DNA of 11,069 bases from a virus (IMGVR_UViG_2711768070_000020); one strand, 5' to 3'; shown: positions 2,811 to 9,067, counted from the stretch's first letter. Notes: generated by a model from the sequence alone, not told the origin. Program-made: numbers and translations.

Positions 2811-2832
2811 TCCCCTGTGTGAGGAAAAAAAT

Positions 2833-3148
2833 TGCGGGTTATGCGGGTTATCCTGTGTATAAGTGTATTAAGTGTATGAATATAAAGGAAATCAATAACC
2901 CGCACGTAACCCGCAAAAGGGCATTTATAACCCGCAAAAGCACGATTATAACCCGCAGGCGAATAACTGAAGTAACACCGGACAGTCATGCGTAACCCGC
3001 AGAAAAAACCCCGTTTGCGGGTTATTTTGAGCGTTTTGCGGGTTACGTGGTGAGCAAATAATAAACAGGGTGTTTTGCAACATGCTGATATAAAAGGGTA
3101 AAAAATGGTTAGCACGCTAAGATAACCCAATAACCCGCATAACCCGCA
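2833..3148. repeat. Iteron array / putative origin of replication: 11 copies of 9-mer TAACCCGCA (both orientations), followed by an AT tract
   Basis: TGCGGGTTA at 2833-2841, 2842-2850, 3016-3024, 3037-3045; TAACCCGCA at 2896-2904, 2907-2915, 2928-2936, 2949-2957, 2993-3001, 3131-3139, 3140-3148; partial TAACCCA at 3123-3129. (TA)n tract tatatatatataaa at ~3156-3170. Non-coding on + strand. Confidence 0.8.
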
Positions 3149-3182
3149 CATGTTTCTATATATATATAAATTGAGGTGGCAA

Positions 3183-4168: not shown

Positions 4169-4441
4169 ATGGTACATGACCGCATAGCGGAAGAACTGGA
4201 GGCGAAAGGCTTTTACCGGAGAGCGTCGGCGCGATGGGGTGAAGTCATGCAACTGGTGGAGACAGACAAGGAACGGCATCAGGTTACGATGCGACGGCTG
4301 GAATGTTCCAGGAAGGCACAGAGGCCACCGGAGCCGCCGGATAATTACGGAGACCTGAAAAAGGCGGTCGATCGCACTTATGCCGAAATGGGTATGGATG
4401 GTGCTGGTGATGAAATATGGCGAAATTACCAGGACAGATAA
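4169..4441 (+). CDS. Small putative transcriptional regulator, tentatively PerC-like (90 aa; alternative GTG start at 4160)
   Basis: ORF 4160..4441 with ATG at 4169. The N-terminal segment IAEELEAKGFYRRASARWGEVM resembles what I recall of the PerC/Pch family of small activators found on enterobacterial islands. Assignment is from memory only. Confidence 0.4.
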   Translation: MVHDRIAEELEAKGFYRRASARWGEVMQLVETDKERHQVTMRRLECSRKAQRPPEPPDNYGDLKKAVDRTYAEMGMDGAGDEIWRNYQDR

Positions 4442-4447
4442 TCACAC

Positions 4448-4470
4448 AGCCGGAGCAATCCGGCTTTTTG
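4448..4470 (+). terminator. Rho-independent terminator after the small-gene cluster
   Basis: Stem AGCCGGA (4448-4454), loop GCAA, stem TCCGGCT (4459-4465), followed by TTTTT (4465-4469), directly after the stop at 4441. Confidence 0.6.
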
Positions 4471-4590
4471 TCATGTTTTGTAAATTATTTGTTCGTGGTT
4501 GTTCCACGTTGTTCGCTGACCGGATCGGCATATTTTACCCGAACTGAATCATGATTATTCTCGCCCGTGGTGCCAGGACGCTGGGGCCAC

Positions 4591-4638
4591 TTTCCCGCCT
4601 GTTAATGTGCTCGCCAATATTCATTACCAGGCGGGAAA
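4591..4638. promoter_or_regulatory. Perfect 11-bp inverted repeat TTTCCCGCCTG-N26-CAGGCGGGAAA upstream of the capsid operon; candidate operator/activator site or 5' leader structure
   Basis: Left arm 4591-4601 and right arm 4628-4638 are exact reverse complements. Located in the 287-bp intergenic region ~90 bp upstream of the capsid gene start. No U-tract follows, so it is not a typical terminator. Confidence 0.35.
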
Positions 4639-4728
4639 ACGATCGGTGCGATTGCTGATTTCCTTATGAAAAACGGTTGAGTGTTTGCCGCGTCCTGGAG
4701 TTCCTTACTTAACTTCAGGACTTTTTTT

Positions 4729-5886
4729 ATGCCGAGAATAATCGAATTACGCCAGCAGAAAACCGCCATTAAAAATCAGATGCGCGACATGCTGGAGAAC
4801 GCGGAAAAAGAAAACCGCAGCCTTAACGATGCTGAGGGCGCAAAATTTGACGAATTACGCGCTAAAGCTGAATCCCTCGATAAAGACATCTCCCGCCTTG
4901 AGGCCGTTGCTGACGAAGAGCGCAGTAAACCAGGCAAAAACAGCCAGACCACTGACCCCGCCGAACTACGTCACTACATTCTGACAGGTGAAACCCGCGC
5001 ATTGAGTACAGGCGTTCCCGCTGATGGTGGTTATACCGTTATCCCCGAACTGAACACCGAAATCATGCGAATGCTGACGGATGAATCCACCATGCGCCGC
5101 ATCTGTACCGTGAAGAAAATCAGCAGCAACGAGTTTAAGCAGCTTGTTTCCGCTGGCGGTGCGACCGTTAACCACGGTGAAGAGGGTAAGGCACGCGAAC
5201 AGACCAGCACCCCGCAGATTAACGAGGTGAGCATTAAGCTGTATCCGGTCTATGCGTACCCGCGCACCACGCAGGAAATCGTGGATTTTTCCGATGTGGA
5301 CATCCTTTCATGGCTGACGGGCGAGATTGGCGACACCTTCACGGAAACCGAAGAAAGCGATCTGGTTGTGGGCGACGGTGACAAAAAAGCAAAAGGTTTT
5401 TTATCCGTACCCCGTGCAGAGAAGAACGACAAAGAGCGTGATTTTGGTACGTTGCAGGTAATTAAACCTTCCGAATCTCTGGCGTGGACATCTGCGGACC
5501 CGCTGATCGACCTGAAATTTGCATTACGTAAAAAATACCGCAAAAACGCGGTTTGGGTGGTTAACTCCACGACGGCGGCAAAACTCCAGAAGGTGAAGAA
5601 CGCGAACGGTGATTACATCTGGCGCGACCGTTTACAGGCGGGTGATCCTGATACGTTGCTGGGCCTTCCGGTCGAATATCTGGAGTTTATGCCTGATAAC
5701 GTTATTGCCCTGGGTGACTTCAAACGCGGTTACTACATTGTTGATCACGAAACAGGTGTTCGCACCAGACCGGACAACCTCACAGAGCCGGGCTTTATCA
5801 AAATTTTCACGCAGAAATATTTAGGCGGTGGCGTGGTGGATTCGAACGCTATAAAGATTCTGGAACTGCCGCAGGACGACGATTAA
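4729..5886 (+). CDS. HK97-family major capsid protein with N-terminal coiled-coil delta (scaffold-like) domain (385 aa from ATG 4729; ORF opens at GTG 4681)
   Basis: AGGA ~9 nt upstream of ATG 4729. The charged helical N-terminus (ELRQQKTAIKNQMRDMLENAEKENRSLNDAEGAKFDELRAKAESLDKDISRLEAV) followed by a ~280-aa body is typical of HK97-type MCPs that carry their own scaffold domain. Genomic context with protease and portal supports the call. Confidence 0.85.
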   Translation: MPRIIELRQQKTAIKNQMRDMLENAEKENRSLNDAEGAKFDELRAKAESLDKDISRLEAVADEERSKPGKNSQTTDPAELRHYILTGETRALSTGVPADGGYTVIPELNTEIMRMLTDESTMRRICTVKKISSNEFKQLVSAGGATVNHGEEGKAREQTSTPQINEVSIKLYPVYAYPRTTQEIVDFSDVDILSWLTGEIGDTFTETEESDLVVGDGDKKAKGFLSVPRAEKNDKERDFGTLQVIKPSESLAWTSADPLIDLKFALRKKYRKNAVWVVNSTTAAKLQKVKNANGDYIWRDRLQAGDPDTLLGLPVEYLEFMPDNVIALGDFKRGYYIVDHETGVRTRPDNLTEPGFIKIFTQKYLGGGVVDSNAIKILELPQDDD

Positions 5887-8945: not shown

Positions 8946-9067
8946 TGAGGCTGTATGACGGGGTGGGGGGCGTTTTCAGGACAAACCCGCCCCCGCCGGG
9001 CACCGAACGCCTCCTCAAATTTTTATGCACGGGAATTTTTTGAAAAATAATCTGACGAAAAATAAAC
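8946..9067. other. Putative cos/packaging-initiation region: GC-rich dyad followed by an AT-rich tract upstream of terS
   Basis: G-run ACGGGGTGGGGGGCG (~8958-8972) and C-run CCCGCCCCCGCCGGG (8986-9000) contain a 7-bp dyad GGGGGCG/CGCCCCC (8966-8972 / 8988-8994). This is followed by A/T-rich AAATTTTTATGCACGGGAATTTTTTGAAAAATAATCTGACGAAAAATAAACA. Lies between HNH and terS, where cos sites are found in HNH-terminase systems. Confidence 0.45.

Follow-up and report, generated by a model that had tools for sequence, protein, structure and literature searches.

A covarying RNA hairpin before the capsid gene of an Escherichia coli capsid-forming phage satellite and its possible role in a gated leader

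The viral sequence IMGVR_UViG_2711768070_000020, analyzed here as a stretch of 11,069 nt (the window), is an EcCIEDL933-type capsid-forming phage-inducible chromosomal island (cf-PICI), a phage satellite of Escherichia coli. Upstream of its major capsid gene lies a dyad—TTTCCCGCCTG at 4591–4601 and CAGGCGGGAAA at 4628–4638, exact complements separated by a 26-nt spacer. As judged by covariation, this dyad is an RNA stem, sense to the capsid gene, that is kept in well over 100 related elements. The hairpin it forms, P2, would be part of the mRNA leader of the capsid and packaging operon, and modeling of this leader makes it reasonably probable that it acts as a transcription-coupled gate on the capsid gene. 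An earlier note on this DNA had reported the perfect 11-bp inverted repeat and offered two readings of it: a binding site for a dimeric regulator, or an RNA leader structure coupling expression of the head module to helper induction.

The dyad as the stem of an RNA hairpin

The repeat is exactly as the earlier note had described it, and so is its location in a long intergenic region, after a terminator-like hairpin (4448–4465) with its T-run and before the capsid ATG. This region is 289 nt long (4442–4728) and separates a PerC-family gene from the ATG at 4729. A repeat search widens the arms of P2 (4591–4638, plus strand) to 17 nt, 4591–4607 and 4622–4638, which carry one mismatch (94% complementary) and enclose a loop of 14 nt; the hairpin is supported by folding and covariation. 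For a 61-nt stretch containing the dyad, the folding energy is −23.5 kcal/mol on the plus strand (z = −4.3; none of 200 shuffles does as well) and −24.8 kcal/mol on the minus strand.

By itself, the repeat is merely mildly unusual, because 13.7% of dinucleotide-shuffled windows hold at least one perfect inverted repeat with arms of 11 bp or more and a spacer of 3–60 nt. The shuffles contain 0.19 such repeats on average, and the 11-kb window contains two, the other one being formed by the iterons of the probable replication origin. This frequency is what speaks for a chance repeat without function, an explanation of practically negligible probability that the comparison with relatives refutes: in well over 100 elements, the hairpin keeps its position and shows compensatory changes. 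The dyad is nonrandom because its pairing, not its sequence, is conserved in related elements.

The relatives comprise four sets: capsid homologs in reference genomes of Shigella, Rosenbergiella, Citrobacter, Erwinia, and Gilliamella; other E. coli cf-PICI types; at least 120 IMG/VR loci matching a degenerate pattern of hairpin P1, which directly precedes P2; and 80 metagenome loci from a capsid-profile search. Among the matches listed, the capsid N-terminal motif is found at the expected distance after the P1 pattern in 124 of 125 pattern loci, the window included, and the N terminus of the window's capsid protein can be aligned with those of relatives (MPRIIELRQ vs MKKLLELRQ). Every leader features a hairpin immediately 3′ of P1, behind a linker of 0–4 nt and with a basal stem of variable sequence. 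A hairpin occupies the P2 position in at least 120 IMG/VR loci and in the genome loci, as well as in 62 of the 79 metagenome capsid relatives. Among the variant basal stems are GGCCGTTTAA/TTAAACGGCC, GTCCACCTGG/CCAGGTGGAC, GCCCGCCCCG/CGGGGGCGGGC, GATCCCCCGG/CCGGGGGATC, and GGCAGCTTAC/GTAAGCTGCC, next to TTTCCCGCCTG/CAGGCGGGAAA of the window. The basal arms are 14 to ~45 nt apart, and in many classes additional hairpins occupy the space between them. A C-to-U variant within the window class, present in seven loci, turns one pair of P2 into U·G, and the divergent relative L167 carries a perfect 14-bp P2 stem with a different loop.

Covariation was assessed in two alignments. Alignment 1 is a plain MAFFT alignment of 38 nonredundant leaders, in which the window class is misaligned; RNAalifold predicts exactly P1 and P2 from it. 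Eight of nine P2 pairs show changes on both sides, values that are reached in 0 of 500 shuffles, and the P1 plus P2 structure is 95.7% paired compared with 33–50% when the partners are slid against each other. Alignment 2 contains 46 sequences of four P1 classes with the window class in register, its 3′ ends being delimited by the predicted fold. Here, compensatory changes occur in all 11 of 11 P2 pairs (112 cells), and the covariation score amounts to 0.62 versus 0.25 in shuffles. The 5′ arms of P2 are hypervariable—22 different ones in 45 distinct sequences—while the flanks are conserved. The non-Watson–Crick cells in P2 pairs are G·U in 19 cases and A·C in 3, and the plus-strand fold is the more stable one in 54 of 65 unique P2 cases.

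These data separate the two readings of the earlier note. Conservation of the dyad in related elements holds for position and pairing and fails for the half-site sequence. A DNA operator would make the dyad a palindromic site at which a dimeric regulator—a helper late activator, AlpA, or PerC—controls the capsid promoter. The perfect 11-bp palindrome within a regulatory intergenic region and the small regulators encoded by the island would suit such a site. It is nevertheless very improbable: the arms differ (22 in 45) beside near-identical flanks while complementarity is retained, the spacer varies as given above, and the bias of G·U over A·C is that of an RNA. The window contains no second good copy of the half-site, the sole match being one with one mismatch inside the primase gene. 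In addition, the dyad lies downstream of the predicted transcription start, and PerC is swapped for unrelated genes in elements that share the leader. The operator was dropped because the half-site is neither conserved nor fixed in spacing nor used a second time in the window. The RNA leader is borne out in its structure, since the stem covaries and is part of a multihairpin leader with a terminator-like hairpin that would sequester the Shine-Dalgarno sequence next to the capsid ATG. For the annotation of genomes, this means that a perfect palindrome upstream of an operon can be told from an operator by covariation and wobble bias alone.

P2 does not resemble a rho-independent terminator: it is absent from the list of the terminator scan, and a U-tract is missing on either strand. 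Downstream of the hairpin, the plus strand reads AAAACGAUC and the minus strand AGUGGCC. The neighboring hairpin P4 (4692–4728) does have the GC-rich stem-loop and adjoining U-tract of such a terminator.

Architecture of the leader

The region 4466–4745 folds at −98.6 kcal/mol (z = −5.6). The upstream edge of the regulatory block is marked by an intrinsic-terminator-like hairpin with a T-run that ends the PerC-family gene (4448–4472, plus strand), consisting of a 7-bp stem with five GC pairs and a TTTTT tail (−12.6 kcal/mol). All further features are likewise on the plus strand. A TGTAAATTAT box at 4479–4488 is the first conserved position of a block common to cf-PICIs and occurs as a single copy in the island; the upstream sequences of ~90 loci become alignable exactly at this box. 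The conserved block starts at the TGTAAAT box whatever precedes it, namely varied genes that in some elements are apparently encoded on the opposite strand, as read by eye from the flanks. Because conservation begins there regardless of the upstream gene, the block is argued to contain a dedicated promoter.

The predicted promoter consists of a −35 element TTTACC (4534–4539) and a −10 element TATTCT (4556–4561) of the form TAnnnT. The 35 nt before P1 are free of indels in 47 aligned leaders, and the only invariant columns are T3, T25, A26, and T30. T3 belongs to the −35 element, in which T4 and T5 are conserved to at least 90%; T25, A26, and T30 correspond to −12T, −11A, and −7T. The consensus across the leaders is a TTTWC −35-like element and a TAnnnT −10 element 16 nt apart, and a promoter scan independently flags the homologous TTTACA-16-TATGTT in the E. 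coli cf-PICI locus L014. From these elements, the transcription start is placed at ~4567 ± 2, and P1 would be the 5′-terminal hairpin of the leader RNA because of this placement. The promoter is probably a weak, activator-dependent sigma-70 promoter.

Hairpin P1 (GTGGTGCCAGGACGCTGGGGCCAC, 4567–4590) has a folding energy of −15.6 kcal/mol. It is near-invariant within classes; in 47 sequences, 99.3% of its cells are paired, and five pairs are changed on both sides. P2 follows, and then a weak hairpin P3 (4641–4660, −5.2 kcal/mol), which is confined to the window class and appears in its predicted lowest-energy fold. Hairpin P4 with a U7 tract (4692–4728), detected by the terminator scan, has an 11-bp stem and an 8-nt loop (−15.8 kcal/mol). 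P4 and U7 abut the capsid ATG, and the Shine-Dalgarno sequence AGGA (4717–4720) lies within the 3′ arm of P4. P4 covaries between the window, L080, and L167, the latter keeping P4 with compensatory changes and a U8 tail. The Shine-Dalgarno sequence is inside P4 in all classes, and the U7–U8 tract is confined to the window class, including L167.

A further pairing involves GATTATTCTCG (4553–4563), a perfect 11-nt complement of capsid codons 2–5 (4733–4743) with a duplex energy of −15.1 kcal/mol (z = −3.2). It overlaps the predicted −10 region and could occlude the capsid start region; because it lies upstream of the predicted start, it would be present in read-through transcripts only. As a general feature, such a helix between promoter and start codon was rejected: it is significant in the window class only, with a mean z of −0.39 over 38 leaders. 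The pairing resembles the fold-back inhibition of transposase translation in IS10/Tn10, including that it would be open to read-through transcripts alone; it differs in that its significance is limited to the window class, and the dyad is not involved.

Mutually exclusive helices and a possible gate

The leader features an attenuator-like layout of four segments. Segment 2 (CCAGGACGC, 4573–4581) overlaps the 3′ half and loop of P1 and is a perfect 9-nt complement of segment 3 (GCGTCCTGG, 4690–4698), which overlaps the 5′ arm of P4. The two would form the 5′ and 3′ strands of a long-range helix, termed AT helix for its putative antiterminator or anti-sequestor role. The cognate 2:3 duplex has an energy of −21.7 kcal/mol in the window and of −14 to −22 kcal/mol over the classes, and it consumes the 5′ arm of P4. 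The complementarity recurs with different sequences: AGACGUGA with UCACGUCU in the main class, GACGGGA with UCCCGUC in class 3, and GGCGGGA with UCCCGUC, including one G·U pair, in class 4. In 47 sequences, 96.4% of the 2:3 cells are paired; one pair occurs as UA in 40, GC in 4, and CG in 3 sequences, and one-sided changes lead to G·U. A column of this three-type pair also pairs within P1, as AU in 40, CG in 4, and GC in 3. Such three-way covariation is the hallmark of helices that exclude one another: 1:2 (the inner stem of P1), 2:3 (the AT helix enclosing P2), and 3:4 (P4). Each of them is comparatively supported, from few independent classes.

Folding of the growing transcript gives the same alternatives in a temporal order. 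RNAs ending after segment 3 adopt the 2:3 helix enclosing P2, and addition of segment 4 shifts the predicted energy minimum to P1 + P2 + P4. In window transcripts ending before segment 4, the AT helix has a pairing probability of 0.89. Averaged over 47 leaders, the 2:3 probability is 0.72 in the truncated transcript and 0.04 in the full one, and the probability of P1 goes from 0.26 to 0.93.

In the mechanism proposed from these models, a transcript starting at ~4567 would present the elements in the order P1–P2–(P3)–P4/U7–AUG. During transcription, 2:3 would be favored until segment 4 emerges, and this would delay P4, which is a putative intrinsic terminator in the window class and would bury the Shine-Dalgarno sequence in all classes. 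The delay would let the polymerase pass the U-tract in the window class and a ribosome load on the Shine-Dalgarno sequence, before the finished leader relaxes into the closed state P1 + P2 + P4. P2 would serve as a sequence-independent structural arm that packs away the 50–80 nt between segments 2 and 3; its contribution might be that of a folding insulator, a timer, or a protein platform. On this model, the leader probably gates the capsid gene at two levels, transcriptional read-through and ribosome loading.

Several observations weigh against the gate. The main class is devoid of a U-tract after P4, and termination control is for this reason not the general function. The closed state with P1 and P4 is better by 6–13 kcal/mol than nested folds in which 2:3 is enforced, so that the ON state must be kinetic or factor-assisted. 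The 2:3 covariation comes from just three to four sequence classes, and the non-Watson–Crick cells of this helix—three G·U versus four A·C—fit two inverted DNA copies of one protein-binding motif equally well. Shuffling of the P2 3′ arm or deletion of P2 leaves 2:3 at ~0.9 in the window leader, and disruption of P2 in the related cf-PICI L043 lowers 2:3 from 0.81 to 0.67 only. The promoter match of the window falls under the scan threshold, as expected for an activator-dependent promoter. Finally, neither a factor nor a ligand nor a leader peptide came to light that could act as a sensor of the switch.

With respect to such a sensor, no Rfam aptamer was found in the window or in the leaders of six relatives scanned, and no trans-acting complement of P1 was found within the island. 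Attenuation by a leader peptide was considered and rejected. An ATG at 4550 opens a short open reading frame (ORF) through P1, whose start and stop are unconserved and which has no Shine-Dalgarno sequence; the main class would read MYILKSGTQT with a stop inside P1, and the ATG is missing in ~30% of classes as estimated by eye from the alignments. A role of P2 as a thermodynamic clamp needed for 2:3 was likewise discarded as unsupported, as the helix survives in silico removal of P2.

A less elaborate explanation is a passive mRNA element, in which P1 and P2 merely stabilize the transcript against 5′-end-dependent decay or form a processing site and no switching takes place. The predicted position of P1 at the extreme 5′ end, the sequence independence of P2, and a finished leader that always adopts P1 + P2 + P4 are in line with it, and a stable mRNA would suit a highly expressed structural gene. 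The passive element is nonetheless rather unlikely: it leaves unexplained the three-way covariation of segments 1, 2, and 3, the terminator abutting the ATG, and the near-invariance of P1 and of GGTTTCACGTC, and most classes have P2 stems of 10–13 bp, short for an RNase III substrate.

The structured 162-nt RNA bracketed by promoter-like elements and a strong terminator-like hairpin with U7 could also be a stand-alone small RNA of ~160 nt (4567–4728) that ends at U7, acts in trans, and contains P2 as one of its hairpins. It would then be analogous to lambda 6S RNA or to StxS, and early-terminated transcripts from late promoters that act as small RNAs are a precedent (PMC7547250). Against this stand the absence of the U-tract in the main class and the absence of a complementary target in the island, and a small RNA appears improbable as the primary role; it is compatible with the gated leader rather than exclusive of it.

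Comparison with known regulatory RNAs

The gated leader has its closest parallels in layout among the classical attenuators—the trp and pyrBI leaders and those controlled by PyrR and TRAP. Features shared by the predicted layout are four segments with mutually exclusive helices, a 5′ hairpin as anti-antiterminator, a middle helix that in the window class competes with a terminator-like hairpin and U-tract just before the first structural gene, and an outcome that would be set during transcription. The cf-PICI leader differs in four respects: it has no conserved leader peptide or recognizable protein or ligand motif; segments 2 and 3 are set apart by the large, variable P2; 3:4 comes without a U-tract in most classes and would act there by Shine-Dalgarno sequestration only; and the context is the capsid operon of a phage satellite.

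For the window class, a likeness exists to the Q-controlled lambda system PR′–6S RNA–tR′ and to StxS (PMC7547250): these share a promoter, a short structured leader, and an intrinsic terminator before morphogenesis genes. Read-through is the regulated step at PR′–tR′. The cf-PICI leader, by comparison, has an RNA-intrinsic competing helix, and no Q gene, Q-binding element, or sigma-dependent pause was identified. An island AlpA acting as a Q-like antiterminator was considered and dropped: the helix-turn-helix (HTH) protein at the alpA position has ~74 residues versus at least 142 in Pseudomonas aeruginosa AlpA, and we take the two proteins to be unrelated. In P. aeruginosa, AlpA works as a Q-like antiterminator that binds an element within its promoter, and its residue numbers extend to 142 or beyond (PMC9371919).

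The HK022 put RNA likewise features two adjacent promoter-proximal stem-loops upstream of terminators. A put-type antiterminator would have P1 and P2 bind RNA polymerase and confer resistance to P4/U7 and to later terminators in the 7-kb operon. The arrangement of the two stem-loops—0–4 nt apart, just behind the predicted promoter, and ahead of a terminator—and the strong conservation of P1 agree with this. The geometry is, however, generic, and the likeness is one of layout alone. In the main class, the stretch from P2 to the ATG lacks a terminator, and P2 is hypervariable, whereas put function needs a specific structure. Alternative pairing with a terminator arm is not a feature of put, and the 2:3 complementarity would already account for a bypass of P4. 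A put-type mechanism is, hence, doubtful to much the same degree as the small RNA.

Another conserved structured RNA of such islands is the int-alpA RNA (RF02996), which differs from the leader in structure and in place, lying between int and alpA by its name. A full-length match was found in the related cf-PICI L043 (1236–1302; 51.1 bits vs a gathering threshold of 35.8), and none in the island of the window.

Distribution of the leader

Of 5426 complete E. coli genomes, 358 contain a window-type leader over at least 80% of its length, and a further 153 contain a main-type leader. A search for homology to leaders of true phages returned none; the matches were one misdeposited cf-PICI and two partial ones. 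The covariance models of Rfam 15 gave no match with E up to 1 in the window, and no Rfam match was obtained over the leaders of L014, L043, L160, L167, L170, and L174. The leaders of L006 and L160 have other folds and are not alignable; they are unrelated, yet stand behind the same TGTAA-type box.

Metagenome loci L170, L185, L174, and L199 carry two more P1 classes, GTGACACTCCGACGGGAGCCGTCAC and GTGACACTCCGGCGGGAGCCGTCAC, ~160 nt upstream of their capsid genes; in each class, the downstream GGTTTCCCGTC segment is altered to match.

The leader is undescribed in the cf-PICI literature searched and in Rfam 15, a comparison that does not extend to the 8495 IMG/VR candidates of PMC10690425. These are anonymous structured-RNA candidates; the paper lists five motifs upstream of major capsid genes (PMC10690425). 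The cf-PICI literature searched is silent on any promoter, leader, or terminator that would serve the packaging operon and does not address the timing and limitation of capsid-gene expression, and no mention of the locus was found in published small-RNA surveys of enterohemorrhagic E. coli.

Upstream sites for a regulator

Three TTGTTC repeats with an exact 10-bp phasing (4489, 4499, and 4509; spanning 4489–4514) lie ~55–80 bp upstream of the predicted start and are candidate protein-binding sites. Phased TTGTTC repeats also flank the island, with one set upstream of int (L001 3804–3893, in coordinates of the chromosomal locus L001) and another at attR (L001 19715–19740). In total, 10 matches are found compared with 2.5 expected (0 of 100 shuffles), and the repeats recur near the contig ends of other cf-PICI loci. 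They make likelier regulator sites than the dyad does, and their positions suggest that one protein may act at the attachment sites as well as at the packaging promoter. An assignment as AlpA sites was rejected: none is present upstream of the alpA-type gene, and int of EcCICFT073 was reported not to be under AlpA control. In the cf-PICI literature, AlpA is required, and overexpression of alpA was used to drive EcCIEDL933 reproduction for particle purification.

The host island

Over the intergenic region, the window matches E. coli 10671 to 100%. This region is found in 421 of 5426 complete E. coli genomes and is chromosomal in all of them. The identical locus, L001 3971–18924, is an island of ~15 kb. 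Its first part, according to the RefSeq annotation of E. coli 10671, encodes int, an HTH regulator at the alpA position, Icd-like genes, a DUF927 primase, SSB, and the PerC-family protein (4169–4441 in the window; Pfam PF06069, E = 9e-44), which lies upstream of the gap. The second part encodes, on one strand, the major capsid protein, prohead protease, portal, head closure, connector, HNH, terS, and terL. The HK97-type major capsid gene (4729–5886, plus strand; RefSeq annotation of the E. coli 10671 locus) is the first gene of the packaging operon. Int, an alpA-type HTH gene, a primase, and its own packaging set are present in L001 3971–18924, and tail and lysis genes are absent, which is the gene content that 10.1101/2025.02.11.637232 lists for a cf-PICI. 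The gene order matches the EcCIEDL933-type organization of 10.1101/2022.09.08.507074.

A probable replication origin of the island is located at 2826–3175, directly after the DUF927 primase gene. It features at least 12 iteron copies, TAACCCGCA or TGCGGGTTA, in both orientations, and a (TA)n tract at 3155–3170. Between a small ORF after the HNH gene and terS, the stretch 8946–9067 contains G-runs and C-runs (GGGGTGGGGGGCG ... CGCCCCCGCC) and is a plausible candidate cos region for the HNH/terS/terL packaging machinery. The dyad was itself considered as cos or origin and rejected, the iterons and the likely cos both being elsewhere.

Some E. coli cf-PICIs carry a gene of the ProQ/FinO family of RNA chaperones (L014 3197–3739; L015 3202–3732) a few hundred bases before the same structured capsid leader, where the window has SSB and PerC. 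Just outside attR, a subthreshold match to the thiamine pyrophosphate (TPP) riboswitch (L001 19827–19909; 36.9 bits vs an Rfam gathering threshold of 54.3) lies upstream of thiM; the island is inserted immediately upstream of it.

Meaning for capsid-forming satellites

cf-PICIs make their own capsids and steal only tails. A conserved module of promoter and leader directly before the capsid gene is an obvious control point for the timing and amount of capsid, and the TTGTTC repeats, P1, P2, the 2:3 helix, and the P4/U7 hairpin offer handles on it. As a tentative extension of the gated leader, the leader may represent a new cis-regulatory RNA switch class of capsid-forming satellites, in which a trans signal on P1 would tip the balance between 1:2 and 2:3 and P2 would be an obligatory scaffold. 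If this is true, capsid production by the satellite would be licensed solely during productive helper infection, and the signal could come from a protein of either the island or the helper, or from the condition of the transcribing polymerase after induction. In any case, an unannotated structured RNA is added to these elements—relevant to PICI-based delivery particles, where capsid yield matters.

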